In this document: positions 18,330 to 64,000 of the stretch, piece by piece
Numbering within the stretch: position 1 is the stretch's first letter
Layout of the letters: every line of letters starts with the position of its first letter
Assembly: GCF_036971445.1 (NCBI RefSeq)
Contig: NC_091477.1
Span: 17,422,001-17,486,000, forward strand
Direction: 5' to 3'
Length of the DNA stretch: 64,000 nucleotides
Source: Narcine bancroftii
Lineage: Eukaryota
Made by a program: the position numbers and the translations under genes
The notes under the pieces: model-generated
What the model saw: only the letters and a program-made list of their open reading frames with translations
The model's database searches: none
Told to the model about the DNA's origin: nothing

Positions 18330-18890
18330 ATTGGAGGATCTATCCTGGAGCCTTCATGTCGATGCAATTATGAAAAAGGCTCATCAGCGGCTGTACTTCA
18401 TGAGGAGTTTGAGGAGATTTGGTATGTCACCAAAGACTCTTGAAAACTTCTACAGGTGTACAGTGCAGAGCTTTCTGGCTGGTTGCATCACTGCCTGGTA
18501 AGGAGGTGCTTATGCTCATCAGGACAAGAAAAAAAATTCCAGAGTTGTTAACTCGGCCTGTGACATGACAGGCATTAGTCTTAACTCCATCGAGATCATC
18601 CATAAGAGGTGGTGTCTTAAGAAAGGAGCCTCTATCCTCAAGGACCCTCACCACCCGCATGCCCTCTTCACTGTTACCATCAAGAAAAAGGTACAGGAGC
18701 CTGAAGATGAAAACTCAGCAGCACAAGGACACTGTTTTCCCTCCTGCCATTAGATTCCTGAATGATCAATGAACCAAGGACACTGGCTTACTTTGTATTT
18801 TACTTGCACTATGTGTTTTATATAAAATGTTTGAACTGTGATGCTGCTACAAAACAAATTTCATTATATGTTCAGGACAATAAATTCTGA
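18330..18890 (+). mobile_element. Rex/Babar-type LINE 3' fragment
   Basis: 'KKAHQRLYFMRSLRRFGMSPKTLENFYRCTV' and 'ILKDPHHP'; ends AATAAATTCTGATT. Boundaries approximate. Confidence 0.7.
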
Positions 18891-19056
18891 TTTAAGTGCA
18901 CTCTGACCTGCAGAGTATTTCCTACATTTTTTTTTGGCAGTAACTGAGATTATTGACTCTTCCCTCCATTTCAGGTTATTTACCAAATTTAAATGCCAAT
19001 TGCCATGGCAAACTTGGAGTTTATGCCTCTAGACCCGAGGACTATTAATCCAGTAA

Positions 19057-20689: not shown

Positions 20690-21773
20690 TATTAATCCAG
20701 TAATTTAATCAATGTGCTAGACGAATGTACAGAGAGGGAAAGGTTAAAACAGGAGCAAGTAAAGGAGAGATAGAAATTGTGGAACAATCTCTGTAACAGA
20801 TATGAAAAAAAAATCTATACTTAATTATATTAAAGGGTGAAATAAAATGACTTTGAAAACTAGGGGAATTGAGGGACATTCAGTGAGAAAAGACTGATTA
20901 GTCATGATTTTATTGAATGGAGGAACTGGTTTGAAGGGGCTAATGAACTAATCCTGCTTCCAATTATTAAGTTCCAACATGCTTTTGACAGGGAGAAGTT
21001 ACCAAAACAGAGAGAAAAAAAAAGTCAGGGTGTGAACTCGGTCTAATAGACCAGGCGTGTGCAAACGAAACATGGGAGAGGCCAAACCATCACTCCCAGT
21101 CACTGAAAAGATTACAATGCAAAATTTCCTAATTCCTGGTGAACTGATTCTCTGTTGCCTTTCTCAGTCACAAACATTGCAATTAGTACGCCCATCAGAT
21201 TTCTACACTAAACCAGAAGTGGGGTTTTAGGCGAAAAATATTGCCAACCTCCCCACCCCCAAAATCCTTCGTCTCCCGTAATGAAGCAAAGCCTGCACTT
21301 ATGACTGTAATCTCCAGTCAAGTTTCCATTAAAACAAATGTAGCTGCTTTGAAATACAATCGTACTATTTAAAATAAATATGGACATGTTCCATCAATTC
21401 AAGGTTCGACACGAGCAAGTTGCAATGGCAATAAAATATAATGGTATCACTGTAAGGCGCTGCCTTAAAAAGGTGGTGGAGACCAGGGGTCTCACAGCAA
21501 TAAAAAAAACCACATTTGATTCATAGATTTTTTTTTAAAAGCGCATGGTCAAGTTCAAAGGAACCATCGAGAAGGCGAAGGGCACGGGGGCAATGAGTAA
21601 GATGCTTAATCTCCCTGCTTTAGTCATTCAATCCCTCCCTCCCTCCTTCCCCACCCCCCCCCCCCCCACTCCACCCCAGCCCAGCCACGCACTGTAGGCA
21701 AAGTGGGACCGACTAGGCCTCCCTGCCACCAACCCACCCCACGCTCGCTCTTCCCGGCCCAACGGGATACCTA

Positions 21774-22364
<591 letters not shown>

Positions 22365-28729: not shown

Positions 28730-28883
28730 ATGTCTTCCGGGGATAAAGAAGATCAGGAAGATGAGCTTCTGGCCCTAGCCAGTATTTATGGCGAGGATGA
28801 ATTTAAACGTGCAGAATCATCTCAGGGTGGAGAAATAAATGTTTGTTTGGAATTGCCACCAAACTTCAAAATATTTGTTTATG
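28730..28883 (+). CDS. RNF14: E3 ubiquitin ligase RNF14 (ARA54), coding exon 1 (RWD start)
   Basis: 154 nt; MSSGDKEDQEDELLALASIYGEDEFKRAESSQGGEINVCLELPPNFKIFVY; acceptor at 28722, donor GTAAGT. Confidence 0.95.
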
Positions 28884-29407
28884 GTAAGTTGAATAATAGA
28901 TTAAAAATTCACAGGAAGCACATGTAGAGGGAGCGCAGCAAATGCTCAACAGCATTATTTCTGAGGGAAAAATTAAGCCGACAAGGGCTTTTACTCTATT
29001 GAAATTAGAAGAATGAAAGGTGATCACATTGACAAGATACTTACGGAATTTCACAGAGATGATATGTCTTCTGGCTGCACCGGCTAGGAAGCAGACATTC
29101 AAAACAGATGAGAGTAATTTCATCACCCAAAGGGTGATGAATCTTTCAAATTTACTACCCAAGAGGCCAATAGAGGCTCAATTGAGGAATATAGTCGCAA
29201 CTGATAAATAGAATTTTAGATGTCAAGGGAGTCAAGGAATATATGGTTAGCATAGGAAAATGAGGTAAAAGATCAGCTACAATCTAATTTAATTGCGGGA
29301 GGGACAGGAAAAACAATAAAACAGTCTTTTTTGATTTCTACCAATCTTATAAGATGGATTATCAATATTACAACCAGCAGTCACTACTAACTTTTTTTCA
29401 TAACCAG

Positions 29408-29556
29408 GTGATGAAAAGTGGAATAAAAAGGATTTGATTGAATATGTCGTTTCCTTTTTGCCTCCTCTTGTGTTGAACTTCGAAGTTCCACCAGATTATC
29501 CATCATGTTCACCTCCTAAGTATACTTTGAGCTGCAAATGGCTTTTCCGATCTCAG
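29408..29556 (+). CDS. RNF14: RNF14 coding exon 2 (RWD, YPxxxP motif)
   Basis: 149 nt; ..EYVVSFLPPLVLNFEVPPDYPSCSPPKYTLSCKWLFRSQ; AG and GTTTGT. Confidence 0.93.
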
Positions 29557-30728
29557 GTTTGTGCCTCAATTTTATTTTCTCAGATGTATTTTATATTTAA
29601 GACATATTTTATGAAATACACAGTTACAAGATCAACTCTTGAAAATAACTCAAAAAATGTATTTTTTTACTTTTGTTGGGTTCTAGTAGAGTCGTGCATC
29701 ATAGAAGCAGGACCATCGTCTTATCATTAATTATCTCATTTACCAGCACCTAGTTCATTGCCTACTCTGGTTTGACAATTCAAGTTCTTTTTAATTGTTG
29801 TAAGACTACTTGCCTCCATCACCTTTTCAGGCTGCACCTTACAGTGATATCAAAATTATATTTTCAATACTGTTATAATTTAGTTAGGTTAAACCTTGAA
29901 TTTATGGAACCACTAAAATGAGTTAATGTTTTTTTCTAATTAAGTCCCAGTATATGAGTATTATAAATCCTAATATGGAAGGTTATGTAATATAACTTTA
30001 TTCTCTTTAGTAAAGAGGTTATGATTAGAGATTCCAAAACATACACTCTTTACTAAAGCTAAGTTACATTATTCTGCTATTTGGAGTGAAAGGTACAAGT
30101 TGCCAGTTCTTTTAAATGAAAGGAATGTTGAACTTTTCATTTTTTTCTTCAATTCTTCATGTATAAATAACTTGTAAATAATCAGATTGGCTTACACACT
30201 GATGTTTACATTAAGCACATTCACGTTAAGCTAAAAAACAAAATATAAGAGACTTAGTCGATTAGGCAAGGTCTGTGTAGACAAGTGAATATATTTTCTA
30301 TAATTAAGTTTCTTTATAATTTTTACGGGAACTTCATCATAACCCATAATATACTCACATTATGTGTTCCATCAGGAATGAGTTTTAAACTGTAGAAGAG
30401 GATTGATGTTTCCCTGTGGATATAAACATAACATTATGCAGACCAAGATAGTTCAAGTTTCGCATCCCAGTATTGACTGATTTAAAAAAAAAATCTTAAA
30501 TGTTATGTTAAACTGATGCAATTGTTACTTTAATAGAGATAGAACAGCATTAGTTTATGTTCCTGATTTGTGTTCATTTGCTTCTGTCAGTCAAGGTAGT
30601 TGTGGAATTGTGTTCATGTATAATAAATGGCTTGGAGGTTTTTTTGCTTTCCATTAGTGGCAGGTAGGAAATATTCATCTGAATTATTTTATCCATTTTG
30701 ACCCAATTACAAATCAATACATCTGGAG

Positions 30729-30795
30729 TGTTACGAGCCCAGAGGACCCAAAAACCCAGCAGCAATAGATATGCACCTCTATATACTCTGTCACT
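30729..30795. mobile_element. 67-bp internally deleted copy of the solo-LTR family, 4-bp TSD GGAG
   Basis: Starts TGTTACGAGCCCAGAGGACCC.. like 56577; ends TATACTCTGTCACT like 57535; GGAG at 30725-30728 and 30796-30799. Confidence 0.75.
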
Positions 30796-32344
30796 GGAGG
30801 AGAAAAAATGTGGATGTAAGGAGAAAACTAAATTGTAATGTTAAATTGGAGTGATTAACAAATTTATTGGAAAATGATCAGCCACGTAAATCACAAGTTC
30901 CTGTTGAATGAAATACAAATCCACTGTTAGTTGTAATAAAGACATTTGGGCAGGAATAGTTTCAGAAGGACGAGAGCCAAATGCAGGCATCTGGGACTAG
31001 CTTGGATAGGTAATTTGGTCAGCATTAACAAACTGAGCTAATGGGCCTGTTGCAGTGCAATGTAACTGACTCTAAAGAGCTCAGATGTCAATAAACATTA
31101 ATTTTATGCATTTTTGAATTGGAGTGTCATCTTCCATTATCAAAGAGATCCCAAGGTCCTATTTTTTATTGAAATATGGAACACATTATGGGTAGAAATA
31201 TTTAGCTTTCCAGTTATAATAGAATGTATGGTTCTTTGTCCTAGATCTTTGGAAAACCAATTTGGATTATATCTTTGGAGCTTAATTATTTTTGCATAAA
31301 TATTCATTGGTTTTTGAAGTTCCATGGAATCTTATTTCGTCATTCTTTCAATATTGTGGTCAAGAATCCACCAATCCCTCTTGTATGAAAATATTTTTCT
31401 TTTGTTATTTCAATTATTTTAGACATAAACTCTATAAATAGTTAACCTGTCTCAAGAAACAGATCTTCCTGCTTGTTCTATTAAAGTTCCTTTCATTTTA
31501 AAAAATATTAGATTTTCTCATAATCTACTGTAAGAAGAATAACCCCAACTTCTCTAATCTCTTGTAAAATTAATGCCTTTTATCCCTGTTATTCCTCTTC
31601 TATCTACTCAACATTATTCCTAATGTGTATTACCCAGAATTTTATACAAATCCATCTGAGAACTAACCTCTGATCAAGATTTTGCATGACTTCTTTATTT
31701 TTGAAAAATTGCTTGCCAGCAAAGTCATGTGCCTGTATGGTTTATCAACTTTTCCATAACAACATATTTAAGATGAAAGTTGTTGTATACAGAATTTTTA
31801 AGGCTGTGAAATATAATGCAGGATTGTCAGAAAACAAAATATTTAACGTGACGAAGTTGGGTTATTAGTTGAAAAGGAAATACTGGATATGGGGACATTA
31901 TTGACAAGGCTGGGACTTGGGCACAAATCACCAGGCCAAACAGCCATTTTCTGTTGTAGTTTCCAGGTAATCTGAAGAATCCTTAGATAGCCTTGCATAT
32001 CTCAGAGGTAAACAAGGAGTTTGCGGATGCTGGGGTCTAGGGCAGTATGTACTAGACTCTGCAAGTCACACAGCATCCATGGAAAGCATTAGACATTCGA
32101 TGTTCGGAGGAAATGTCAACTGCCTGTTGCATTCCACAGATGCTGCGTGATCTGTTGACTTCCTCCAGCATTTTGTGTATTGCACATCGCAGAATATTGT
32201 TATGGATTAATTTAAGCGCGTCCATTCCCCTTGTTGTATTTTGCAATAAACATGGGTTCAAACTTTGTGCCTCATTGTAATTCTGATAGTTCTGTACTTT
32301 ATCCCAAGTGTTATTCAATAACTTGATCACTTGTCTCCCAACAG

Positions 32345-32851
32345 CTCTCTGCACTTTGTACTTATCTGGATAAAATTTGGAAAGATAGTGGCAATTGTGT
32401 AGTGCTATTTTCATGGATGCAGTTCTTAAAAGAAGAGACTCTCTCCTTTTTACAAATTGAATCACCATTAGAAATGCAAAGAAACTTTAAGGGAACATCT
32501 GACTGCATGTTCTCTCGTGATAAGAAAAAAGAATTTGGATCGCTGAATAAGACAGAGTCTCCCCCTGACCCTAGAGCTATCCAGGATGTGACATCATGGG
32601 CGAGTCTTTTACGTGAAATCTTGGATTTTGATCAGATGCGACAACAACAAGCCTTCAATAACAAGCTGTTCACCTGCAGCGTATGCTTTTCTGAAAAGTT
32701 GGGGACTGACTGCACATACTTCAAAGAGTGTAAACATGTGTACTGTAAAATATGTTTAAAAGAATATTTTGAGATTCAGATACGCGATGGGAATGTTCAG
32801 TGCCTTAACTGTCCGGAACCAAACTGTACTTCTGTTGCTACACCAGCTCAA
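32345..32851 (+). CDS. RNF14: RNF14 coding exon 3 (end of RWD, RING1)
   Basis: 507 nt; LSALCTYLDKIW..VVLFSWMQFLKEE..CSVCFSEKLGTDCTYFKECKHVYCKICLKEYFEIQIRDGNVQCLNCPEPNC..ATPAQ; AG and GTAAGA. Confidence 0.95.
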
Positions 32852-33687
32852 GTAAGATCTTTTGAACATTATCCTTACGTTTTATTTTAATATTTATATT
32901 GAATGTTGACAGCAGTAGAAGTCATCTGGTTGTCAATACCTTAACTTAAAGAAATGATCATAAGCGTGGCAAGAACTGAATAATCTTGACCATTATGAAA
33001 TTCATAATGTGCATAGCTACCTATCACGTGCAGACCCTCTAATTGTTCGTCAGACATCGCACTTTTTCTATAGCATCTCTGGTTATCATTAGTCTGTGTG
33101 TAACACTTGCATTTGATAAAGTTTTAAATTCAAATTTTAGACATACTTTCTCTTAAAAGTATGAGAGCAACATTCTTGTGCTAGGGACAAGAATCTACCA
33201 GTTGTGAGTGGTAGGCAGAGACCTGTTGTGAGCTTTCTTCCACTTTATTTTTCTGGATTTCATTATAAATAAAAACAAATTTATTATCGGATAAATTATA
33301 TTATGGTATAGGTGTGAGTCTTGTGGCACCTATACCATTTTGCTGATGGTATCAGTGAGAACAGAGTGTGTGCTGAGAACAGTTCAATCGGTTCTGAAGC
33401 TGGGCTCTTACTGGAAATGTCCTCTCCACATCCATTCTATCCAAGCCATACAATATTTGGTAGGTTTCAATGAGATCCCTCCACATCCATCAAAACTTCA
33501 GCGAGTATGAAGAGTTCTCAAATGATCCTTGTATATTAGCATTCTCATCCCTGGGATGATTCTTGTAAATCTCTTCTAGACCCTCTCCTTTCTGGACCCT
33601 TTAGATATGAAACCAAAAACTGCTCACAATACTTCAATGCAGTCTGACCAATGTCTTTTAAAGCCTAAGGTTTTAATATCTTTATAG

Positions 33688-33916
33688 GTCAAAGAGCTCG
33701 TGAAGGAAGAGATGTTTGCACGATATGATCGCCTTCTCCTTCAGTCTACGTTAGATCTCATGGCAGATGTGGTGTATTGCCCTCGTAGCATTTGCAGGTC
33801 AGTGGTATTGCTTGAACCAGGGAACACCATGGGCGTTTGTCCAGGATGTCGTCATGCCTTTTGTGCAATATGTGAAATGGCTTATCATGGAATTTCTCCT
33901 TGTAAGTTGAAAGCAG
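33688..33916 (+). CDS. RNF14: RNF14 coding exon 4 (IBR)
   Basis: 229 nt; VKELVKEEMFARYDRLLLQSTLDLMADVVYCPRSIC..CPGCRHAFCAICEMAYHGISPC; AG and GTAAGA. Confidence 0.95.
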
Positions 33917-36388
33917 GTAAGAGAATATGTTCTCACTTGTCTTTTTAAAAATAATAGTTCAATTATGCATGTAATGCAATGTTAAATTAAAATGTGTAAA
34001 CACAAAATGATTTTTGAAATGTTTTCATGGGAAGATGTTCATATTTATTGTCACATTATATCTTGTACAGTGAGGAGAGTTCTTTTTAACAAGCAAATAG
34101 ATCATCTCAAATAAGCATAGAGCAGTGCAAATAGAAGAGCAAGAGCATATTAGTGTCCAATGTTGTTGTGAAAAGATCAATTAGCCTATCGCAAGGGTAT
34201 CATGGGAGACTGTAGTGAGATTCATTCAGGAGACTGATGACTGTGAGGAAGAAACTATGAACCTGTTGGTGTGTGGCTTCTCATCCCTGAACCTTTTCCC
34301 TGAGGGGAGGAGGGAAAAGAGATGAGTGGGGAGAATGGACTGTTGGCTGCCTTTTCAAAGTAATGAGAGCTGTAGATGGATTTGATGGAAGGTTTGTGTG
34401 ATTCTGAGCTGAGTTCTACACCTTCTGCAGCTTCTTACAATCTTGGGCAGAGTAGTTCATGTATCAAGCTGTGATGCATCCAGCCAGGATGTTGTGTTTA
34501 TTCTGAAGTATATACTAGTTAATGTCAGTCAGAGAGCAGGAGTGATCTCTGGTGTGCATTCATGTAGGCCTTTTTTTTTTGTTTCTATTGTCTGCAGTCA
34601 GAAGAATAGAAAGTTCAGAAGCTCAAGTTAGTTACATGGGTCCAGAGATTGTAGGTTTTAATATGTGACTAAAAAAGGTAAAACCTAAAATTAAAAGAGC
34701 TCTAAAAGTTTAAGAGAATAGAAAGGTTTACATAAAACCTTCCAATTAGCAATTTTTATAACTATTGCATGAGGGATTTCTGTCATGGGTATGAATAATG
34801 AAATTTATATTAGGTAAATAGTTGACTTGAATTTCATTTTTTAGGGGTAAGTAATGTTCTCAAGGCTTGAATGTGGTCACTGAAAAGTTGAGAAAACAAA
34901 AGTGGTATTGCTTTTTAGAGTTTTTAGTATTCATGTGATAATCTATGAACTTTTAAACATATATTGTACAAGTATTTTAGATAACCAGCTATAAAGAAAG
35001 GTAGAGCAAGAATGAGTTTGATGTGGGAAGCTCTTATTCAAAGCTTTCATGGAGCATCATATTGGGTGTGAACATTGAACAAAGATCTGCAACCTCTCCA
35101 TTTATCTCATGAAGTACAATGCATAGATAGCAAATTTGTTGCCATGTGTTCCTTCAACACTATTATTTATGCTTCAGAAGCTGTGCTTTCGTACATTATG
35201 AAGATCTTAAAGATCCTTTGTTAGAGTTGCGTTTCTTTCTCGTTACAAGGGCCAGATTTATCACAAAAGTTTCATAACACTGGAAGAAATGAACATTTCC
35301 ATTCGTAAATAAACTTACCTAAGAGTATTGATAGTTATATCCATTTGAGAGCAGTTAGTAATTAGTTCACAAACTATGCTCAGAATTCCCCAATTTTCTA
35401 AAACTTAAAAATTTTTTTTTGGTCTGAAATCAATTACATCATAACTATTTTCCATGATTATTCATTTGGGTACTCTTTAAGAATCTTAGTTTTTAATAGT
35501 TTTAGAAGATATTCCTGGATCTATTTCGGAGTTGTAACCTGGTGTTTTAACACTTAAAATGAAATTATTCTTTTTTTTCAGGAAGAGTATCTAAATTACA
35601 ACTGAGTTACCCAATTCATGACTGAGTAATCAGTTTTAAACTCTACTGAAAACAACATTTGGGAGATGCACCTCAAGTTTCAGATCCATCAGTTGCTCTT
35701 GAATTTCCTCTGGTTTGGTAATTTTGAGAAAATGGCAACTAAGTAGAAGCTGTATTTTTCCCCCCCCTTAGATTTGCAGTGTATTTAAAGCAGGAAAAGC
35801 CTGAACTTTAGGAGAATGAATCCTATAAACAGGATTACTGAATGCACCATCAGCATCCAACCCCAGGAACATAAAGAATAGATGAGGACAATGTGGAACT
35901 GTTGTTCAGGGAAACACAAGAAGTACAGAAAGTGGAATCTTAAAGCAAACAAAGGAGGGACTTGACAGGTCAGGCACCATCCATGGACAGAAATAACCTC
36001 TTTCCACTTTGGTCTTGAGAAAGTCAAGTTTATTATACAATCCAACAAAACAATGATCTCAAAGCCTCAGTGCAAAACATGCAGACGTAACTTGCATGCA
36101 GATAAAACAGTACGTATGCAGGACAAGTATTTCATTTACACAAATAAATATTGCTTCATGACTATGAGTTTCAGATGGTTAGTGTGAGCAGTTCCTTTGT
36201 TCGTTCAGCATTCTCAATACTGAGGGTATTGGTGCCAACCTAAAATTATGACTATCTATTTCTCTCCATGGACGTGACCTAACCTGCTGAGTCCCTTTTC
36301 TTTGTTTGCCTTTTGAACTATCAAGGTTTTTAAGGAAATAAATGATATTTGTGAGTTCTTTTTCTAACTCTTGGGGTTTTGTTTTCAG

Positions 36389-36561
36389 AAAAACTTTCTC
36401 AGTTGCGAGATGAATACTTAGATTCGGATGAATCTGGGAAAAAACTTCTAGAAAAAACATATGGTCGCCGAGTGATTGAAAAAGCCATGGAAGAGCTATG
36501 CAGCCAGGAATGGCTTGAGAAAAACTCGAAGCCATGTCCTCGCTGTGGTACAAACATTCAG
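36389..36561 (+). CDS. RNF14: RNF14 coding exon 5
   Basis: 173 nt; EKLSQLRDEYL..YGRRVIEKAMEELCSQEWLEKNSKPCPRCGTNIQ; AG and GTTAGT. Confidence 0.95.
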
Positions 36562-37532
36562 GTTAGTTAATCAACCTAAATACACATACAGTACTAGATT
36601 TTCTTGTAACAGACAGTTAGTTATTATTACTAGACTATCACTTTGTAAACTTTTGTTTTTCCTCTGAATTTTAAAAATATCTTTTAAAGATCTTTAAACA
36701 CATCTTAGTCTTTGAAAGAATTAGTTTGTGAGGGATTATGGCAATGGTTTTGAATGATCTTTTTGTTAGAGTGTCATATTTCCATATGGGAATTCATGGG
36801 TTTAATTTTAATTTTCCTTTTCGTGAGTTAATTAGTTTGAGTATGACAATTAAAAATTTTACAAGAATTTTAAGATCTTGTTGATGAAAGAATCATTAAT
36901 GTGAAAAAGGTAGATTTTGTTAACTTTTCTGGAGATACTGCCTGACTTGATGAATGTTTCCAGCATCCTGTTTTTATTTTAGATTTCCAGATTCTGCAGA
37001 TTTTGTATTTATCTTCATAGAAACAGTCTGATTTCAACTTAATAAAAGCTGAGATAAAAGGAACATTACCATTTTAAACGGAACAATTTTTGATCATTGT
37101 CAGGAATTTATTTTAAGACATTTCTCACAGACCCTGAGTACGGTGACATTAAGGTAACCATCAATTAGATGTTCAAAGTAGGTGGGAATATCCCAGGAAC
37201 GTTTAACTTGAAATTGAAATTGGAAACTTGGCGAATGATGAGGCCTGCCTTGGATCATTTAGAACAGTTTATTGGCATCACAGATGTGACAGCACTCAAA
37301 ACTACATCAATGGTTGCAAAAGTTGGGCGACAGTCAGAATACCAACTGAATGCAACTTCCCACAAAGTTTGCATGCAGCCCTGCTTCAATAAACTTAACA
37401 TCATTAGAGATTCATGACAATAGAAATATTTACCTAAAATTGAAATCGATGTCAAAAACCTCTCGTTGTCAATGTAGGATTTTTATTGCATTTGGTATGT
37501 TGCAGTAAAATGTTGATATTGTGCTTTTCCAG

Positions 37533-37663
37533 AAAATTAATGGATGCAATAAGATGACTTGCACTGGTTGTAAGCAGTACTTCTGTTGGCTTTGCACATG
37601 CCCATTATCAAGAGTAGATCCATATGGACATTACAATAACTCCACCTCACCCTGTTTCAATGG
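37533..37663 (+). CDS. RNF14: RNF14 coding exon 6 (RING2, catalytic Cys in GCNKMTC)
   Basis: 131 nt; KINGCNKMTCTGCKQYFCWLCTCPLSRVDPYGHYNNSTSPCFN; AG and GTGAGT. Confidence 0.95.
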
Positions 37664-50510: not shown

Positions 50511-52299
50511 CCCAGCTATAAAAACAAAAGTTTGCTGATGCAAGAAGTTTAAAATGGAAAAAAAAATGCTGTAGCTATTCACCAAAACCTTGCAGCACCT
50601 TTGGAGAGAGAAACAAGTAGCCATTTCAGGTCATATTGGAAAGAGTAGGTTATTTGCTGCAGTATTTTTAAGAAGACTATGTAATCTAAAAATGGTTCTG
50701 AGTTATTCTAAAATGTGTGCGACATGTTGTGCGACTGATACACTTTGGTTCATTTTGAATTGCTGTCCACCAATAACAGGAAGTTTTCAACACCTTTCTC
50801 ACAGTTTTCGTGGACATGGTGGACTTCCACAGTTGTGGAAGCCTGCATACTGTGTACTTGCTAACTGGGTCAGATGTTTGCTCGAGTATACAGCCATACC
50901 TTAACTATGGCCAATCGCAGATAAATCCAAAGTCGCCATAAGAGCTTAATAAAATTTTTTTCTGAAAATATACAGTGTATCACGGCCCCTGTTAAATGCT
51001 CCCAAAACAAGCCTCTTGCAGAATCAAAAAAGAAAAAGTGTGCCAATAATTTGGAATCAAAGCTAAAGGTGATAAAGCAATATGAAAGTGGTAAAACTAA
51101 ATAGTTATAGTACGGAAATTGGGATGGTCTCTCTCAACTATAACCACAATCTTAATCGAACTAAAATTACCCAGGCTGTTCAACAATGGTATTTAGACAT
51201 GTGTATGTACAATTAGTATGTGTGTCATGGTATCTTATGTTGTACAATATATTTTACTTATAATGGTTGACTTACGCCCACATTGTGTCCCCACTTCCAG
51301 AACGAAATCCATGGCCGTATACATTTCCAGATGCCTTTGACATCACTACCGTGGACAATTTCCATTCCTTTTTTTATTCTTTTCCTATAGCCAGTCTATT
51401 GTCTGTACCCCAAATAAAATGGGAAATGCCAGAAATACCTAATTGGTTGGACAGCACCAAGGAATGTGCTTGAACACAAGGGCTCAGACTCAAAACATCA
51501 GTAATATATCTTGACCTCCCATGGACTCTGCGAGACTGGCTGAGTTCCTCCAGTATTTCTGTGTTTTGACTACGATCACAGCATCTGCATACTTTAAAAC
51601 GAATTCAGGTTGAATACTTTTCATAAGGCACTGTCAAGTATTTTCAGAATTTTCTGTTTACACTTTTGTAGCTCGAATAAAAACTCTCATGACCAGAGGG
51701 AGAACAAACACTTGTATTAGCTTATAACTATGGATAGGGTCTCACATAGACTTCGGAAGGGTTCTGGGTTTAGGTGGGAAACAATACACTACCAGTGAAT
51801 TGCAGTTCAATGCATTCACCCCTTCCTGCCGAATTGAGGCTTTGTGAATGAAGACAGAGAACATGGATTCAGAAAAAAAAAGTTGAAAAATATACAGTTA
51901 TTTACAGATTGAAGCAGTCCGGGGGTCTGGAGATCCTGGTGGAGTGCCCAACCAGGATGGGGGCACTCAACCAGTGCTCAACACACTACCAGTGAATCCC
52001 AGTTCACTGCACACTTCCTACTTCAGGTGCATGCCTTTGGTTACTTTTCTTAACGCATATCGTGATCGTACTAAGAGCCCTGCCTGGTTCATTCAATGTT
52101 CTAGGATACCTGTTCAATGATAAACGTACGATCAAATACATGTCAAATGTATTGATTTGTATAAAATTAATGTGTTGTTTAAAATATCTCATTTGGATAC
52201 AATACCACGGTACATTCTATAATCAAGCAGCGGGAATATCAATGAAGAAATACATGTAGTGCCGTGTCTAAGGTATGGCTGGGTGCCACTTAAAGGGTG

Positions 52300-54050
52300 G
52301 GGGGGGGGGGGGGGCACTGCGCAGTTTCTATTAAAGCCAAACTCGAGGGAGCAGAAGTTTTGAACATGTGCCTGGGCATCGATGTGGCTGCCGCGAAACG
52401 CTTAAAACTGGAGAAGTGACCTGTTGATTACCATGGGTACAGGAGTAAATGCCGCCATCTCCATGGAGCGCGGATCCGGAGGGGGGGGGGGGGGGTAAGG
52501 CCGGAGTGTTTAGAGGAGCTGCAGGGGCTCGTTGTCCTGCCCTCCCTCCCTCCCTCCACGACGTTGCACGTCGGAGACCAGCCCGTCCATCCTGGGCCAC
52601 ACCGTGGCTCAAGGCAGACTCTTGCTCTGCTTAGGAAGAGAAGAAACGGGGGGGGGGGAGAAGGACTTTGATTACATCAGGGACCAATTTGCATCGGTGA
52701 AAGCAGTTGTGATGTTCACGTCGCGCCGTAATTTGTTCATGAACTGATTAATGACTTGTACTTTTGATCTGATATTCCGGTAAAGTTATCTATGTGTGGA
52801 CAGGGGCGGAATATCAGGACTTCCCATCGGCGCTGTTTTCCGTGATCACATCCGAAGGTTATCTGGAAACGACCAAAACGGAGATGGATTACACATCAAT
52901 TTAATTTGCAAAGAAACGAGCGCAACATTTAATGAACATCCATCTGTAACAGACTGTGGTGCAACGTGGGAACCTTGTTCCTTTATTGTGCGGGCCTTTG
53001 AAACCTATTTCATTGCTGGCGAGTCCCAACTCCAGGGCGAATGGTCCCTGGGGGAGGTTCCCCCACCCCACTGATCAGCTGACCGGCAGGCAAGTCACAT
53101 GACGATTTTTTCTCACGCTGGTGAGGAAACTGCAGAAGACGGTCTCTTCTGATGGTGATTTCCCTCCAGCCCGGTGTGCACCCGTTAGCTTTGGGCCAGA
53201 GTTGTTTCGCTGGAAGTAATCCTTGAGGAGAATTGAGAGCGCTCCATGCCAGACCCTCTTAGGGTCAAAGTTGCTTCGCAGTCACGGGCAATTAGGCTGT
53301 AAGTCCATTGCCGTCGTTTCCTGCTCGGGGCTTCGCTGGACTTTTAATGCTTCGGGTAACTCACGATTTTGATCAAACTCCTCCACGCTATTGGTGCGAC
53401 TTTAATGCATTAATTGTTGAGTTTGCATTGTACGTTGTATTTTCATGCACTGACCATGTTAAGATCCGCTTAATATTGTGATTCCAGCTTTTATTTCTAC
53501 CTGCTGAGTATAAGCATCTCGTTGAAAAAAATACCCAAAAACGTGAGAATTGTTGATGCTGAGATTGGTTCGCCAGGCCACTTCTTCTTTCTATTGCCCC
53601 CCCCCCCCCCCCAATATTTAGGGGATACTTTGCCACCCGTTAAACTGGGATTGTTTATCTCCGCCCCCAAATTGCGGGTTCTAATTTGGCGCGCCCAGTT
53701 CCCAGCACGGTCTGGTTTTGGGACGCGAATCTGCCTCCGGAGTGGCTGGGTCCATTCTCGGTCGATACACGCCAGTTTCACGCGAATTCTTCACGGATGT
53801 GGGACAGTCGCGGGTCGAGGTGGAGCAGCCTGAGTGATGCACTTGTTGGCTGACGTTACGGAAGTGGGTGGTCAAGTGAGCGAAACACGGTTTGCATTGC
53901 ACGAAGAAGGAAACAAACGGACGGGCGGCTTTGGCGGAGGCCGGGGAATGAAACGCTGGCTCCTCGAACGGGATGTAACCCCTTTAAAAATAGGCACAGA
54001 CAGCGGACTGGCCTCGCGTGGGAGCTCATGGAAGAAGTAGCCTGCTTCCT
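52300..54050. promoter_or_regulatory. CpG island, probable GNPDA1 promoter
   Basis: CpG-rich block about 4 kb upstream of the GNPDA1 ATG exon; E2F-like TTTGGCGCGC (about 53685), GC boxes, TGACGT plus ETS CGGAAGTG (about 53851-53866), YY1-like GCCGCCATCT (52451). Confidence 0.7.
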
Positions 54051-54569
54051 TGTTGAATTGGTCTCCAACTTGCCAAGTACGAATGTCTGTCCCCACTTGT
54101 TTTGGCTTCAAATTATGGACATGTTGCAAAGTTTCAAATATTTCTGGATCATCTCGCATTTGTACCTCTGTGTTAAATAACACACAATGAGTTAACGTTA
54201 TACGGCACAGTTTATTTAATTCTCCTCCTTTGATCTCCAGTTAACAGGAGGCATAAGCCTCAATCCCCAATTTCCCTCGGCTCATAAAGCAAAAAGTGTA
54301 AATAAGCCTCTGGTCATCTCAACACAGGCGAGTCATTGGAGTAAAAGTGTGCAGAGGCAGTGAATGAAGTAAAAACCCAGCGCTGGAGGTTGGTAATTGT
54401 TTGGCCCCGCGTCTGATGACAAAAGGTTGTAAAAGCTTTATTATTGTTTGGTGAAACTAAGTATGACTCAACAGTTTCTATTCCTGTAGCAAAAGTGATG
54501 TAGACTTTATCCCAGTCTGATTTTAATCTTGTGTATTACCATTTTCTTGTTTAGCCTACTTCGATTTGT

Positions 54570-55820
54570 TGACAGGAGCAATTACTGTCCTATCAAAGGT
54601 GCTGAAGTTTTTTGAAAGGCTGGTGTTGATCAGATTCTGTCTGAGTGGATCAGTTCCAATTCACTTGATGGACCAAAAGGCCATGGCAGATGTCATTTCA
54701 CTGGCATCACACAAAGCCCTGGAACACCTGGACAGCAGGATGTTCTTGCTTGACTACAGTAGTCAACACCGTCCCCTCAAAATTTATCAGCAAACCTCCA
54801 AGATCTGGGATTCAGCACCCCACTAGGTAATAATGGATTTTCTCCACAATCAGTGAGGATCGATAAGAACTTTACCTTCACAATCAGTACCGGAGCACCA
54901 CACAGCTGTGTTCTTAGCCCCCTGCTCTACTTGATGTACACCTGTGGCTCCCTATGATAACAACATCATCTACAAATTTGCTGACAATACCACAGTAGGG
55001 GGTTGAATAGAGGGGTGACGAGTCAGCATAAAGGAGGAGATTGAAAACTTGGCTGAATGATGCATCAACAACAACCTCAATGTCACCAAAATGAAGGATC
55101 TGATTGTTGACTTCAGGAAGGGAAAACCAGAGGTATACAATCCAGTGATCATTGTGGGGATCAGAGGTGGAGAGGGTGAGTAAATTTAAAGTTCTTGGGA
55201 ATCACAATCTCAGAGAATCTTTCCTGGACCTAACTCGGGAGTTTTCAGAGGTATGACGTCGGAAACCTTAGCAAACTTCTACAGATGTATGGTGGAAAGT
55301 GTGTTGACCAGGTGCAGCATGGTCTGGTGTGGGAACACCAATACCCCTGAGTGTAAAACCCTGCAAAAGGTAGTGGACACAACACAGGACATCATAGACA
55401 ATTCCTACCCCCCCCCCCCCCCTCCGCTATTGAGAACATCCACAGAGAAAGCAAGAGCAATCATCAAGGATCTACATCACCCAGCACATACTCTGTGTTC
55501 ACTGCTACCATCAGGAAAGAGGTATAGGTGCCACAAGACTCATACCACCAGGTTAAGGAACACCCTCCACCATCAGACTTTTCAACAACAAACCCAATGA
55601 GGGAGTAACTTGAGGGCTCTTGCTTTTGCACTTTCTCTTTTTTTCTCTCTCTCTCTATGGCACAGTCAGTTTGGTTACATTTTGTTTGTTTACATGTGAA
55701 TGTTAAGTTGTTTTTTTTTTGCATGACCAATCAATGGTACTTCTGCCTCATCTGCAGGAAAAAGAATCTCAGGGTTGTATGTGATGTAATACATGTACTC
55801 CAACAATAAATCTGAAATAT
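54570..55820 (+). mobile_element. Rex/Babar-type LINE (RT to 3' end)
   Basis: 'LKFFERLVL', 'GAPHSCVLSPLLY', 'YKFADN', 'LANFYRCMVESVLT', 'LLPSGKRYR'; ends AATAAATCTGAAAT. Confidence 0.8.
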
Positions 55821-56576
55821 ACAATTATTTCCTTAATTGTCCAGAATGACCACTGAACAAGACAATGCTCATTGTTTTTACAAAGTATTGGTTCAGCTGC
55901 AGCAAGTAAGATATTTGGTGCACATATACATCGTACAATGTATATGATATTGGGAGGGACGGGTTGAGAAAATCCAGTTGGGGCTTAAAGGAAAAAGCAG
56001 AAGTTGATGCTGTTTGCTTGGAGATTCCCAAGGTGGAATGCAAAGTGCTCTTCCTCTATTTTGTGTGTGGCCTTAACTTGGCAGTTCAGTAGATCATTGG
56101 CAGGCAGGTCAGTGTGGGATTGAGAAGCGGAATTAAAATGGGTGGGAGATTCCAGGTATTGTGGCAGATGGAATGAACGTACTTAACCAAATGATTTCCT
56201 GTTCTCTTTGTCCAGTCTTCCTGATGTAGAGGTAACCGGAAGATTTTTGGTTGCTGTTGGGTCATTTAAAAGTAGTTCTAATTTTTTTTTTCTAGCCAGC
56301 TTTTATTTTTCAAGTCTATCCAATTTTTATTGGAATGAAATGTCAAAGACTCTTCTATTTTCTCGCAAGTGCCGATCTTCAGGAAAAATGGTTCATTTTT
56401 GTTATTTTTCTTTCATTTTGAGCATGTTGTCACAAAAGGACCGAATCATACAGAGATACATCAGGGAAAACAAGGCCTTTGACCGATCAAGACAGCCAAC
56501 CACCCATTTGCCCATGTCCTTTATTAATCACTTTTTAAATTCTCCCTACGTTCTTCAAATATCTGCACTTAGCTGC

Positions 56577-57535
56577 TGTTACGAGTCCAGAGGACCCCAA
56601 AACCCAGCAGCAATAGATATTCACCAAGACCAATAGTTGTTTAAACAAAAGTTGTTGTTAATTATCTTTAAACATGAAAACAGGATCACACTTATCTCTA
56701 TTAACTTAACCCCCTTCTAATCCAAGTGTATGTAATGTGTGTAAGTTTAGAAAAGTTCTTTGATTCACCTCATTCCTCCAAGTTCACTGGTTGCAGGCAA
56801 TTCTTGTACTGTGCACAGAATTTAACATTTATGAAGTTCACCAGGCTTTAGTGCTTGAAAGGTAAATAGTTACCACTCAAGAAGGTTCTTGTCAATTTTC
56901 CGAGAGAGATTTGTTGTTCTCTGGATGCCCACAACTGATTCCTTGTAACCAGCCACTTCAGTGTCTTGCCAAAGAAACTTGCCCCATCAGATTTTTCCAG
57001 ATAGTAACCTCTTTCTTTCAGGTCACCACAGAGTTCATTTTTGTTTCTCTTATTTCAAGTGAAACATTAGGCAGCCAGTCCTCTTGTATGAACCACAAGG
57101 GCTTTGACCAGGCTGAACTAAGCACTCACAACCTGTCTTCCAAATGGGGTTTTTCCACAAGCTTTCCAGCTTGTCCCATTCCAGTCCCAGCTACTGCTGC
57201 TGACAGTATCACTGCAGAACAGATCTCTCTCTGAGAAAAACCCTGTTTTTCTCTCTCTGCTTGCAAAACCACACGACCCTCTTAGAACAGCAAGTTCCAC
57301 TCCAGACAGTCTGTGGCTCTGACGAGTTCTTTCACCTGTTGCCTTTTTGTAAAGAACAATCCATTAGTGAACTCACTTGGGCACTCTCCAAAACTTTTGC
57401 AAAGGCTCTTGGAGCTAGCATGAGCAGAGCTCCAGTATTTTAAACAAGATCTGTTTTAAAGTGTTTGTATGTGACATAACCAAAAAAAAACCTGCCCCAA
57501 TTTATCTCCCAAAAACATATCTATAATCTGTCACA
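56577..57535. mobile_element. Solo LTR (959 bp) with 4-bp TSD CTGC, inserted into a SINE remnant
   Basis: TGTTAC...GTCACA termini; CTGC at 56573-56576 and 57536-57539; two further family members at 1-895 and 30729-30795. Confidence 0.88.
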
Positions 57536-57972
57536 CTGCACACTGGGGCAGTTTATAGTGGCAATTAACTTAACAATCTGCACAGCACTGGGATGTAGGA
57601 GGAAACTGAAGCTCCCAGAAGAAATGTGTGATCTCCGAGAGAATGGGTGCCATCTGTGTGGAGTTTCCACAAAGTCGGGGCTTAATCTGGGTGTCTGGAG
57701 TTCTGAGGCAGAAGCTCTGTTCATTTTGCTACGGTCCTGTCTGGTTTTAGGTGCTGTTGTCAAAGGAAGCTAGATTTCTGAATTTGAAACACTTGTTCAA
57801 GTGTGGCCTCACTTGGTTTAAATTTTGAGTTTTGTGGTGGTGGTGGTGGTGGGGGGGGGAGAGAGAACATGCATCCATTGAGACCTGTCAACACATTGGC
57901 TTTTCTTCTGTCTTTTCTTTCTGACAGAAAGTGATTTAATCTTTTCTACTCCTTCATTTTACAAAAATAACA

Positions 57973-58096
57973 ATGAAATTGGTTATATTGGAAGACAACT
58001 CAAAAGCCTGTGAATGGGTTGCAAAATATATTAGGAATCGGATCATTCAATTCAATCCAGGACCGAGCAAATACTTCACCCTGGGCTTGTCCTCTG
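57973..58096 (+). CDS. GNPDA1: Glucosamine-6-phosphate deaminase 1-like, coding exon 1
   Basis: 124 nt; MKLVILEDNSKACEWVAKYIRNRIIQFNPGPSKYFTLGLSS; acceptor CTGACAG at 57927, donor GTGAGT. Residues IRNR and FNPGP are GNPDA1-type rather than GNPDA2-type. Confidence 0.9.
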
Positions 58097-59469
58097 GTGA
58101 GTAGAATGATATTTAATGTGAACTATGTCTTGTTGGTTTACTAAATTTGAATGAATCTGGTTTTGAATTGAGTATTTTGGGGGTATGTTCAACAACAGAA
58201 AAGCAAGAAGATGCTGGAAATAGGAAAGAAAAAAAAATAGAGCCATGGAAAAATTCAGCAGGGTGTAAGGCAGCATCTCTGAGGAAGGAGAGAGATAAGT
58301 TAGATGTCAGATGTATGTTGAGCAAGGTAAGAATTGGAAGGAGCAAAAGGGAATTCCTGTGCTAGGAAGGAGGCCAATGAGACAAGTTTCTTGCAACAAT
58401 GTGTTAATTGCCATTCCCTTGCTGACACAACCACTGCTTGCTATTGGTTTCCTTCATCTCCATGCTATCACATGCATCCATTTGTTCTCATTTTCCAGCT
58501 TCTAGTTCTGATGAATCAACATAAATGTTAATTTTTTTTGCCTACTCAGATGTTGCCCATCTTGGGCATTTCTAGTATTTTCTGTTTTTATTACAAATGT
58601 TCATAAATGCCAATTAACATACACAGTCAGTAAAATCTCTGGTATCCAGCAGGTGTGGGGTTGGTGGATGCCAGATAAGTAAGTTTTTTTTTGTCACTTG
58701 AGACTCATTCTTCCAATGGCAAACTAATATACCTGCATTAAGAATACAGTTTAATTTCTGCAAATGGAATTTACTCAATATGGGTTTATTTTTATTCCAA
58801 ATATAAGATATTTTAGTGAATACAATGTATTGTCAAAAATGGATTTCGGAATAAAAACTGGGACTGCTTGAAATAAAAAAAATTGGGTAAGATTAACATT
58901 TTAATAGCATTAATATGACCTATGTGTGAGGAAATTTCAACCCCTCTGCTTTAAAAGGTTGATTCCTCCTTTTAAGAAATTCCTTCTGATTCGAGACACC
59001 CGAGTTTGTATTGAATTAATGAATCACTGAAAAATTTTCAAATGAAATCTTAAGCCAGGTTAAGAACCATTTATATAAAAAAAACCTTGTATTCTCATAT
59101 TGGAATGGAGTGAAAACAGATCAACGCATGACATCCACTAATGATGTTTTACTAAAACTGCAACTTGTGTCTTGGCATGTGGACTCTTGGATTTTGTTTA
59201 ACTAATAAATTTGAAGTTTCTTGTTGGCACACTTGTGTTTTTATCTTGCTAGAATTATTTCTAGTGGGTTATGAATAAGTGTTACAATATCCTTCAGAAA
59301 GGATATGTATTTTACAAAGCCAATGGCTGACTAAAATTTGCATCAATATCATTGGCAATAAGAATTCCTTTCAAAACCATCTTTTCTGACTAACTTCACT
59401 TAATTAATTATTGGTTAGTAATTGGTGGTTTCATCAAGTAAGATGGCAGAATATAAATCTGGATTATTT

Positions 59470-59700
59470 TGCCATACAGTATGGCAACAGGTCACTTCGG
59501 TCCACGAGTCTGTGCTGCCCAATTAACCTACCCCCCGGTACATTTTTCTATGATAGGAAAAAACTGGAACCCCCAGAGAAAACCCATGCAGATGCAGGGA
59601 GAACGTGCAAACTCCTTTCAGACAACATGAGATTCAAGGTCCAGTCCTGATCGCTGGCACTGTAAAGGCTTTGTGCTAGCCACTACACCAGCCATGCTGC
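59470..59700 (-). mobile_element. V-SINE/HE1-like SINE
   Basis: Same family as 41731-41984. Confidence 0.75.
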
Positions 59701-59769
59701 ATATTGAATTTATTTTTAAAGCTATCTAACACAATTGAACTTGCAGCTGTCATAAATATCTTTCTGCAG

Positions 59770-59871
59770 GCAGCACTCCATTGGGAAGTTATGAAAAACT
59801 AATTGATTATTATAAGAGTGGAGATTTATCTTTCAAATATGTGAAAGCATTTCACATGCATGAATATGTGG
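59770..59871 (+). CDS. GNPDA1: GNPDA1-like coding exon 2
   Basis: 102 nt; GSTPLGSYEKLIDYYKSGDLSFKYVKAFHMHEYV; TTTCTGCAG and GTAAGT. Confidence 0.92.
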
Positions 59872-61859
59872 GTAAGTGTGCTGCAGTACAACTTTTTGAC
59901 TTTATTGTCTAAAATACATATGGCTGATCTGAATTGTCATTTTTTTTTCTGTAGTGTCTGGCCTGGATTCAATGACTTGACATGTTTGTGTTGCATCTCT
60001 TAGTGCACTGATGCAGTAAATTTAATGAGAAAATTTACTATCAGTGAATCAAATATTTTCTATTACAAAAACTACATGCAATTGCCTTGAACTATTAATC
60101 TTAGAAATAATACCATAATAGAGAACAATTAGTAGATTATTCAGCCTTCCTGCCCCCCCAGCCTAATTGATCATTCAATCGGACTGTGATCTTCCCCAAG
60201 TCTGGTTTCCTGCCCTTTCTGTATAATCCTCGATCTTTTACTGATTGGAAATCTATCTCAGCTTTGTATAAGCCCAAGCACTCTTTCCACTCAGCTAAAG
60301 TTAAAAGGGATTTCCAAAAGCTCAATTCCTGAGAGAAGAAATTATTTATTATCTCATTCCTAAATGGGCACTCCTTCTGAGACTATGCCCTCTGGTTCTC
60401 ACTGTTCTTGAGATGTATTCACCCAGTCTCGCTCTGCCAATACACCCCCCTCCCAAGAATCTTGATTGTTCCTCACTTTTTTTTAAAATCTTTGAGCAGT
60501 GACAAGCTATTTAAACTTGTAGAACAGCCCCTCCATATCTGGAATCATCTCAGTACACCTGCAATGAACTTGCATTTATGATTCAATAGGGGCTCACAAT
60601 TGTTGAAAATACTCTACTTGTGGTCTTTCCAATGCCTCATGCAGTTAAACTTCAACTCCCTTTGATTAATGGCCAGTGATGCACTTGCGTGCTTTACTCC
60701 TTAGAACCCCACAAATCCAATGGTGCTGCAGATTTCTGCAGCTTCACCATTTTCTCACATGATTAAAAATATATTTATCAATTTGTTGCCCATTCACCTT
60801 ACCAAGCAATATTTCCATCCACAACTTATTTTTCTGCACACTATTTGCTAAAACACAATGGAGGCTTAATCAAAAAATGGAAGTGTGGTTTGATTTTTAT
60901 GCTAGGGCTATTTGTTTTTAATTTGATAAAGTTTCCTGTGAGCCAAGAAGTGTGAATGTGATGAGGCAAAGAGGTTGTGTAATTTCAAGCTGACTGCTTC
61001 ACATCCTGCATTTGGGAACTGGTGATGAAGCTTCTGTTGATATTGTTGAGCCTCAGAATCATTATATTGTTGGAAGATGTCATTTGGAACATTTGAGTCT
61101 ATGTTGTTTTTCATGTAAATCAATCCAATCAGTTTCATTCCTCCACTCTGTTTCCAATGCCCAGGAGGTTTTTTTTTCTATTTTAAAATGATTGATAATT
61201 TATTTCTGCTTCTTAACTCTTGTTGGCAAAAAGTTTCAGATTTCTTTTTAATCTTTTCCTCCCATTCCTTCTGCATTTATTGTCCAAAACCTTAAATGTG
61301 TACTCTCCCCCCACCCCCCCCCAAGTTCTTGTACCATGTCGAAAAGAACAGCTTTTATTTATCTACCTTGTATAAACTGATCATAAAGTTACCCACTTTG
61401 CACAATAATCGAAATGAGTGGCTGTTGTATAAATTCAATGATGCCTGCTTCTCTTGTTTATTTTTCTTCATACCCATTTCATTGAATGGCTTCTTTGAAT
61501 GAGGGTAGAGATTTAATAAATACCATTCTGGAAGTTACCTACTTTCTGCTCACCTGTGGCTTACAATTGTCCTGCCATACCTTAACTTTATAAAATATAA
61601 CAAATAAAAATCAAAATAAAGCATATGGCTTTTTTGAACTTGCTCCACCAGTTGGTAAGATCATGGATGAAGACTTGCCTCATTGTCCACTCTCCAATCA
61701 CGGTGCCCAATCACAATTGTTTATTTTGTTTTCATGAAGGAAGATTTGTTTGTTAATAATAAATATACTAGAATGTTCATATTCTAAACATTACCAGTGA
61801 TGTAATACTGATCTAAATTTGTAATGTTCAATGACTTGCATATTGCATTTCCCTTGCAG

Positions 61860-62042
61860 GCCTTCCAAGGAGGCACCCGAAAAGCTTTCACTCGTTCATG
61901 TGGAACATTTTCTTTAAACACTTGGATATCCTGGCTGAAAATACGCATAATCTGGATGGGAATGCTCCAGACCTGGAGGCCGAGTGCAACAATTTTGAGG
62001 AGAAAATTAAGGGGGCTGGGGGAATTGAGCTGTTTGTTGGTG
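61860..62042 (+). CDS. GNPDA1: GNPDA1-like coding exon 3; gene continues right of window
   Basis: 183 nt; GLPRRHPKSFHSFMWNIFFKHLDILAENTHNLDGNAPDLEAECNNFEEKIKGAGGIELFVG; CCCTTGCAG and GTACTG. Confidence 0.92.
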
Positions 62043-63072
62043 GTACTGTGCAATGAACTAATTAGAACTAATACACACGTCTTGTAGCTTGTGCACTTAA
62101 ATAACTGATGGCTGTATATTACTTTGGATCATGAAAAATCAAAGGGAGGATATCACATTGGCCAAATTACACACTTCCCCACCATTTGCAATACATAAAA
62201 GTGCTGGAGAAATTCAGCAGGTCACACAGCATCCATGGAAAGTAAAAGGTAATCAATGTTTTGAGCCTGACCCCTTCATTTGGAATTCCTTGCGGCACAG
62301 GCCAGTAATCATTGGTTACCTTTTACTTCCTATGGATGCTGTGTGACCTGCTGAGTTTCTCCAGCATGTTTGTGTATTATACTTGACCCCAGCATTGTTC
62401 AACTTTCCCAACATTTAGTATGCGATATAAACATCAGAAAATGATCAATGCACAGAAAAGCAGTAACAAACTTAATTCCTTTGCATTTAAGAAGCGAGAT
62501 AGAAAACGCACAGGGAGTAATAGATTAGTTTGGATTTAGAGTAGGCGTAGGAAGCTTGATTTAGACTTAAGAATCAAAAATGTGATTTCCAAATGTTGAT
62601 GTCAAGTTGGGTTGAGGAGGTGGTTGGTTTCATACATGCTGTTAAACAGGTATTATTAGCATGGAAGAGGTAAAAAAGGGATTACAGACTTGGGTGGTAA
62701 ATAAAAATCACAAGCCGTATAAAGCCGCCAAGGATTGTGGTTTATGTATAGAATTAGAAAATAACTAATCTGTAAACTCTACCTTAGTAGACCACACTCG
62801 GGAATAAGTACTGTCCTAGACACTATGATTGAAAGAAGGATGTAATGGTGACAGAAGTGATGTCAAAATAGAAAAGAATTACAGTAGTGCCATTAATGTA
62901 ATCTTCTGGCAATCATAGGAAAGCAAGTTTGACCTTTCAAAAAGAAAAAAAAAATCTATGTTCAATCTCTTAAAATAATAAAAGGTTGTGTAGGAGTGGG
63001 TGCAAAAGTTTCCAATTGACAGGAAGTGAAAAGATATCCTGAAAATAAAATAATGATCAGAAACATCTAATG

Positions 63073-64000
63073 AGTTTATTCCAAAAAGGTTTCACTGTCT
63101 CACATGACCAAGTAGAATGTAGAAAAGAACCTACATCCTTATGACACCTAAAACATAAATCCGAAGAAATAAAATTATATTTCCTCTATTTTTCCGGAGT
63201 TAAATATAATTGATGAAGAAAATTATAAAGAACCAATCGATACCTTACATTTACAATTTTAGTCATACAATCCCTACATAAATTCATCCAGTCATTCTGA
63301 GAAATAAGTCTACCTAAATATTTCTCCCATTTCAATCTAGATTTATGTATATCCAGCTTAAGCATTTTATTCTGTAGTAAGGCATACATCTCTGATATAA
63401 ATCCCTTCTTACCACCCTCAGTAAGTAAAATTTCAAATTTAGATCTTCTAGGTAACCGTAAAGTATGTCCAAAATTATCAAACAATAAAGCTTATTGGAA
63501 TAAACTTTAGGAATTTTTAGGAGTTATTTTGAAAGTGAAATTTTCATTAGATCCCTTGGTATTTTTGTTGGGTGATATTAAGAGGATTTGTTTAGAATTA
63601 AAATTAAATAGATTTCAAATTGCTTTTTTGAGATTGGCATTAGCTGCGACTGGAGAATGTTTGGTAATTACTTGGAAAAATTAGACTGATTTGAGTATTC
63701 GGAGATGGCATATGGGCTTGAGGTCTTGTATTCCATTGGAAAAGAGAACATATAATTCGTGTGATAATTTTTTTTAATTGTAAAACTTGGAGCCCGTATT
63801 TGAATTATTGGGGTTGAATCATTAAATCTCCTTCCCGCACAGTAGTGGTGTTGCCCCAAACCATGGTAATTAAATGATGAATTTTGATGTTATGTGATCT
63901 CCTCTCTTTTTTTTGGGGGGGGATAAGTTAGAGGGGGTGAATTGGGGTTGTAGGGGATTAGTTTTTAAGTTTTATTAATTATGTTTTAACATGTACATCA
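63073..64000. mobile_element. L1-clade LINE with inverted 5' segment (63073-63493 minus; 63495 onward plus)
   Basis: Minus: ..YRLVLYNFLHQLYLTPEK..CFRCHKDVGSFLHSTWSCETVKPFWNKL (CCHC domain). Plus resumes WNKL..DPLVFLLG..LRLALAATGECLVITWK. Confidence 0.8.

Follow-up and report, generated by a model that had tools for sequence, protein, structure and literature searches.

Introduction

The enzymes closest to the protein described here are the glucosamine-6-phosphate (GlcN6P) deaminases of the NagB family (Pfam PF01182, TIGR00502), to which vertebrate GNPDA1 (1NE7) belongs. In these enzymes Asp72 serves as the base in enolisation: after His143 has opened the ring, it moves a proton from C2 to C1 and thereby commits the substrate to deamination. 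For E. coli NagB (1CD5), Asp72, Asp141, His143 and Glu148 are named as the catalytic residues (PMC3234256), and the E. coli numbering transfers to GNPDA1 gap-free in our alignment. A 2024 review (PMC11593775) poses as open questions why there are two GNPDA isoenzymes in vertebrates and whether either of them has a non-catalytic role. We have analysed a stretch of 64,000 nucleotides from the electric ray Narcine bancroftii (G000:C21:17422001-17486000, hereafter the window, to which positions refer unless a contig is given), carrying a GNPDA1 gene that lies on the + strand and extends past the 3' end of the window, and in which codon 72 is CAT, so that histidine replaces the catalytic aspartate (59859..59861; D72H).

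The loss of a catalytic residue in this core metabolic enzyme is real and apparently undescribed. Asp72-less GNPDA was not found in the literature among the best-ranked matches listed, which lay mostly outside subscription journals, and papers on GNPDA1 in electric rays, or on its pseudoenzymes, duplication or loss, were likewise absent among the matches listed. Having lost a catalytic residue while its reading frame is intact and its transcript spliced, the gene is a candidate for encoding a pseudoenzyme, and our leading, if tentative, reading is that Narcine GNPDA1 may have been kept by selection as a protein that binds amino-sugar phosphates without deaminating them.

Catalytic, Ligand-Binding and Hexamer Residues

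The comparison set comprised 144 close homologues, all of near-full length and with at least 72% identity to GNPDA1 of macaque, to the exclusion of shorter and of more distant rows; all changes are stated relative to living relatives. Asp72 is retained in 138 of the 144, in 293 of the 306 rows that cover the motif, and from E. coli to mammals; this residue, expected of an active GlcN6P deaminase, is His in Narcine GNPDA1. The ring-opening triad D141/H143/E148 is retained, as are the phosphate contacts Gly42, Ser43, Thr44, Arg172 and Lys208, with the flanking Pro40, Thr41 and His207 altered. The allosteric residues S151, R158, K160 and Y254 are also retained and, among the hexamer contact segments, 230-232 and 244-250 are unaltered and 216-223 carries I216L, E218D and G219D; the allosteric residues and contact segments are those listed in PMC4281351.

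Narcine GNPDA1 resembles vertebrate GNPDA1 in its 78% identity, its triad, its allosteric residues and most of its hexamer contacts, but differs by P40S (58090-58092, TCC) and T41S (58093-58095, TCT) in exon 2, T68A (59847-59849) and N70H (59853-59855, CAC) together with D72H in exon 3, E83K (61880-61882), N92I and I106N in exon 4, and H207L and G219D. Pro40, Thr68, Asn70 and Gly219 are each retained in 143 of the 144 close homologues. Ser41 occurs in five, all of them Asp72-less, and Lys83 in the two His72 proteins alone. The original prediction, made from the letters of the window, had read His72, His70, the Ser40-Ser41 loop and Phe85 (TTT), and all are present in the codons. Of these, Phe85 carries no weight, since the residue is common to other rays and occurs in nine of the 144 homologues, including manta, sawfish and skates. 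Phe85, Val138 and Ala154 had been considered as signs of a new role and were dropped, because E. coli NagB or relatives that retain Asp72 have them too.

With three of the four listed catalytic residues retained, the protein could be imagined as a weak deaminase, with lower or shifted GlcN6P deaminase activity and His72 as the base. Proton transfer is possible for histidine, and the protein passes the nagB equivalog cut-off of TIGR00502 (349.5 against 236.9 bits). However, such a profile score is blind to single residues, Asp72 is retained over the wide range given above, and four neighbouring near-invariant positions are also altered, and we consider this explanation highly improbable.

Authenticity of the Altered Codons

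A contig from a DNA run, possibly of the assembly's own sample, covers 59649-61322 with no other letters. Exon 3, which encodes His70 and His72, is matched exactly in the contigs of all three RNA-like runs that cover it, and the loose ends of these contigs are the adjoining exons, as expected of spliced molecules. Exon 4 similarly shows no other letters in contigs X5 and X6, exon 2 is joined to exon 3 in contigs X6 and X7, and the Ser40-Ser41 codons are visible in two of the three RNA-like runs. Asp or Asn in the reads, which would have refuted the original prediction, was not seen.

The RNA-like status of the four runs is a guess, none being recorded as RNA, and the fourth (X8, organism B) lacks cover on the His72 exon and was not counted. 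In read mapping across 12 kb with an 85% similarity threshold, repeats dominated the matches and long pieces alone were used; contig depths of 4-22 were not taken as expression levels. Since the RNA-like runs derive from one study, and maybe from the assembled animal, they exclude an assembly slip and not a private allele. The idea that an artefact of assembly or haplotype produced the unusual codons draws on this possible common origin of the DNA and RNA-like runs, and is largely refuted by the uniform reading of exon 3 and by the spread of altered residues over five exons, so that we give it almost no weight; an assembly error behind the His72 codons is very unlikely.

Orthology and Copy Number

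The GNPDA1 frame of 840 nt and 279 codons, open throughout its six coding exons, translates exactly into the database protein P0005, named glucosamine-6-phosphate isomerase 1-like, Narcine bancroftii. The top match to its predicted fold is human GNPDA1 1NE7 (template modelling score 0.81, 78% identity), and the structure model, with a mean predicted local distance difference test score of 74.7 and 16 sequences, supports the fold alone and not side-chain geometry at 70/72/83.

A genome search with intact stingray GNPDA1 yielded 11 matches confined to two loci, the window gene and a locus on contig C8, and no intact GNPDA1 duplicate or retrocopy was found among them. The window gene groups in the tree with GNPDA1 of other rays and not with GNPDA2 (support 98/92), and differs at 41 positions from stingray GNPDA1 as compared with 73 from the GNPDA2 of Narcine itself. 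The C8 locus groups with GNPDA2 (support 82/88) and retains Pro40, Thr41, Asn70, Asp72, Glu83, His207 and Gly219. Given that there are two loci only, the other being GNPDA2, and given the tree and the neighbouring genes (see below), the window gene is the sole GNPDA1, with no spare copy, and not the paralogue that had been predicted.

Retention by Selection or Decay

Among 137 reference rows, 125 columns show a conservation of 98% or more, and at these Narcine GNPDA1 carries 12 changes; 110 of the reference rows carry none and the maximum among them is 4, counts which are low partly because the columns were defined from those rows. Five of the 12 changes fall in the catalytic motifs 38-45 and 66-75, which hold 16 of the conserved columns (P=0.008, the motifs having been picked post hoc), and four fall in a first-shell contact list drawn up from recall (P=0.048). 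The scaffold is little affected, with none of 15 conserved aromatics and one of 15 glycines changed, and conserved columns are altered at none of 20 in the region 220-262 and one of 38 in 139-195 (P 0.07-0.11). The differences specific to the ray, 37 in number, are of lower severity than random ones (P about 0.005) and depleted at conserved columns (P 0.013-0.018), to both of which earlier normal selection contributes.

The gene shows no disabling stop, frameshift or splice loss, the only premature stop being that at codon 280 in the variable tail. In neutral simulations an open frame after about 25 changes had P about 0.04 (0.01-0.14); with an assumed indel ratio of 5%, the share of runs retaining both frame and splice sites was 4% for 25 amino-acid changes and 9% for 18, and with a ratio of 10% it was 1-4%. 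Of the 29 changed codons, five are two steps away from every codon for the residue common to three relatives, which suggests that the changes are old. Ray GNPDA2 carries one change at invariant columns and ray GNPDA1 eight, and the lineage is therefore not generally fast in this family.

The strong rival to selective retention is that GNPDA1 has become dispensable, as GNPDA2 covers the reaction, and is drifting under relaxed constraint with no disabling mutation yet by chance, an explanation that we regard as possible but rather doubtful. It is favoured by the intact GNPDA2 gene and by a terminal branch of 0.19 in the tree, compared with 0-0.05 in stingrays, manta and sawfish. Moreover, extrapolated from the 125 conserved columns to the whole protein, the 12 changes would amount to about 25, near the 26-34 rare residues seen. 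Against it stand a frame and 10 splice sites that are all intact (P 0.04-0.09 for 18-25 changes and a 5% indel ratio), the continued splicing of the gene, the excess of changes in the catalytic motifs and, in lacertid lizards, the persistence across species of an Asp72-less duplicate with few other conserved-site changes.

Several further results weigh against retention by selection and are best considered together. The clustering of substitutions on the active site that was originally predicted holds for the five changes in the catalytic motifs and not for N92I, I106N, H207L and G219D, harsh changes which lie outside both motifs, G219 being within hexamer contact segment 216-223 as given in PMC4281351; because residues beyond the active site have changed as well, relaxed decay stays a strong rival, while a catalytically dead or neofunctionalised protein, as also predicted, is still the best reading. 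A position-blind clustering test gave P=0.085, and in severity the 12 changes at conserved sites do not fall significantly below random ones (P=0.16-0.17). Of the 40-41 positions that differ from stingray or sawfish, 12 are conserved columns, against 0-3 of 15-35 for five ordinary pairs, a share which fits a long neutral phase. When indels are left out of the simulations, the frame stays open in 14-22% of runs for 18-25 changes. The stop at codon 280 leaves the tail four residues shorter than in stingrays, and the 539-nt leader seen in one RNA-like contig holds eight upstream ATGs, whose frames run for 1-50 codons without reaching the main start. A second electric-ray GNPDA1 orthologue was not found among the matches listed in protein searches, cluster look-ups listing at most 15 members each and a 50% representative search, and one genome cannot separate retention from decay.

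Recurrence in Halosaur and Lacertid Lizards

The Asp72-less proteins among the 144 close homologues are Narcine GNPDA1, one halosaur protein with His72 (Aldrovandia affinis KAJ8406014, P0150) and a lacertid duplicate with Thr72 in four species, Podarcis lilfordi, P. raffonei, P. muralis and Lacerta agilis (P0146, P0204, P0205 and P0148, respectively). The lacertid copies form one clade (support 100/97) and carry T41S and D72T in all four full-length sequences seen, these being the only conserved-column changes in the Lacerta duplicate. Podarcis raffonei, the sole species checked, has an intact GNPDA1 alongside the duplicate, on another contig. The occurrence of the duplicate across species shows that an Asp72-less GNPDA1 is able to persist. 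No literature on the lacertid GNPDA1-like duplicate was found among the matches listed. In Zootoca vivipara, the GNPDA1-like protein P0168 has Ser41 and a gene model that lacks exactly the residue-72 exon, which suggests that the lacertid duplicate contains introns.

The lizard proteins share with the ray the loss of Asp72 and T41S, with the site otherwise kept, but they have Thr72 and represent an extra copy, whereas the ray has altered its only GNPDA1. The halosaur protein shares His72, Lys83, Val138 and Ala154 with the ray and is also altered at positions 183 and 184, but retains Pro40, Thr41 and Asn70. Judged from these sequences, the recurrence of Asp72 loss in two other vertebrate lineages is suggestive, and supports a dead or repurposed protein in the ray.

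This comparison has its limits. With selection on Asp72 taken into account, the overlap beyond that residue is weak (P=0.09 in the lizard case and 0.43 for the halosaur), and the Asp72-less matches came from a word search seeded with the Narcine protein, which biases convergence counts accordingly. Active E. coli NagB naturally has the Val138 and Ala154 that Narcine and the halosaur have in common, and the halosaur protein is a single unconfirmed gene model. A value of P=0.011 for one column altered in all three lineages was rejected as circular, the lineages having been chosen for their absent Asp72.

The pairing of His72 with Lys83 in the ray and the halosaur, and in no other of the 144 proteins, raises the alternative of a new chemistry, in which His72, with His70 and Lys83, would work with the retained triad in another sugar-phosphate reaction (isomerase, epimerase or lactone hydrolase) or form a metal site. 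The triad and phosphate contacts are retained, and the fold is also found in 6-phosphogluconolactonases. Nevertheless, Asp to His and Glu to Lys need one base change each, the lizards have Thr and not His, the halosaur retains Asn70, and no result points to a substrate. The lactonase model TIGR01198 gives 52.4 bits against a cut-off of 124.45, with intact ray GNPDA1 itself scoring 57, and this alternative appears improbable.

Proposed Function

Pseudoenzymes in general (for reviews see PMC5106787 and PMC10211241) combine an enzyme fold with a lost catalytic residue and kept ligand sites, and Narcine GNPDA1 is like them in these respects. In the mechanism that we propose for a pseudoenzyme kept by selection, fold, assembly and binding of amino-sugar phosphates would persist. 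Deamination would be blocked by the loss of the Asp72 carboxylate, which shuttles the proton from C2 to C1, and by the reshaped strand and neighbouring loop. The retained triad, phosphate pocket and allosteric site would permit a response to hexosamine phosphates, such that glucosamine-6-phosphate or N-acetylglucosamine-6-phosphate could be bound and produce a conformational switch without turnover. The protein may in this way buffer or sense hexosamine phosphates, with catalysis left to GNPDA2. Binding, inactivity, assembly and sensor output are properties that we infer.

Non-catalytic sugar-phosphate sensor domains are known in CggR and LsrR, which the fold comparison recovered as remote matches (E about 3e-5 to 5e-5); unlike the Narcine protein, which is a recent, 78%-identical derivative of an enzyme, these are bacterial repressor domains with 6-14% identity. 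A role as a regulatory subunit of GNPDA2 hexamers had also been predicted. Nothing here supports such co-assembly, and natural GNPDA1/2 hetero-hexamers have not been shown according to PMC11593775.

A broader proposal, which we consider unlikely but of interest, is that GNPDA1 has been turned independently at least three times, in the electric ray, the halosaur and the lacertids, into one undescribed kind of protein, a hexosamine-phosphate sensor or a His72-based catalyst, through loss of Asp72 and retuning of Thr41/Glu83, with the triad and allosteric site kept. Were this repeated conversion true, GNPDA1 would be revealed to have a second role apart from deamination, and the retention of two isoenzymes by vertebrates would be easier to explain. 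Intact natural Asp72-less GNPDA1 proteins would separate catalytic from any other role, and the three can be compared with active relatives of 78-90% identity. If the gene is merely decaying, it cleanly illustrates how a core metabolic isoenzyme can become dispensable, a finding of modest interest.

Gene Structure, Promoter and Neighbourhood

The three coding exons in the window (57973-58096, 59770-59871 and 61860-62042) translate without stops. Exon 2 (57928..58096) carries the start codon at 57973 and encodes residues 1-41, exon 3 (59770..59871) residues 42-75 and exon 4 (61860..62042) residues 76-136. Three further coding exons lie beyond the window, also on the + strand (G000:C21:17486529-17486713, 17487832-17488006 and 17491584-17491654), all within the next 6 kb. 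All 10 GNPDA1 junctions are AG/GT, and the three exons with canonical splice sites and neither stop nor frameshift of the original prediction now form part of the six-exon frame, and its proposed inspection of the downstream exons revealed the retained triad and no disabling stop.

A non-coding first exon at 53895..54388 (+ strand; contig X6 record 18) is followed by a GT donor, its 5' end being as far as the RNA-like contig reaches. Together with 57928-57972 it forms the leader of 539 nt, or 663 nt when the first coding exon is added, in agreement with the contig position, and other leader forms may exist. The contig starts inside a CpG island around the transcription start region (52001..54250, unstranded), where CpG observed/expected is 0.65-0.97 as compared with 0.05-0.4 from 54251 on, consistent with the CpG-island promoter that had been predicted. 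Parts of the introns consist of high-copy repeats (54800-57600, 59200-59700, 62200-62400 and 62800-64000), with very deep piles of 85-95% matches.

Upstream of GNPDA1 lie HSPA4-like exons (3434-21881, - strand) and RNF14-like exons (28730-37661, + strand), the latter on the GNPDA1 strand as in a fused sturgeon gene model, and the neighbourhood matches fused fish gene models. An NDFIP1-like gene is found on the same contig about 6.5 Mb from GNPDA1 (G000:C21:10934628-10956031); adjacency of NDFIP1 and GNPDA1 is suggested by fused paddlefish and catfish gene models, and a rearrangement parts them in Narcine bancroftii.

Active-Site Variation in Other Homologues

Several shark GNPDA1 proteins, from carpet sharks and a catshark (P0124, P0128, P0137 and P0134), carry Asp43 in the phosphate loop, a position that is elsewhere Ser or Gly. 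A GNPDA-like protein of the marsupial Dromiciops gliroides (P0155), on a long branch, retains Asp72 but shows another kind of active-site lesion, namely D141Q, R172K, F173Y and H207Q. Among distant NagB-like representatives, P0267, P0302, P0358 and P0284 have Gly, Ala or Asn at position 72, and P0267 also has Lys83.

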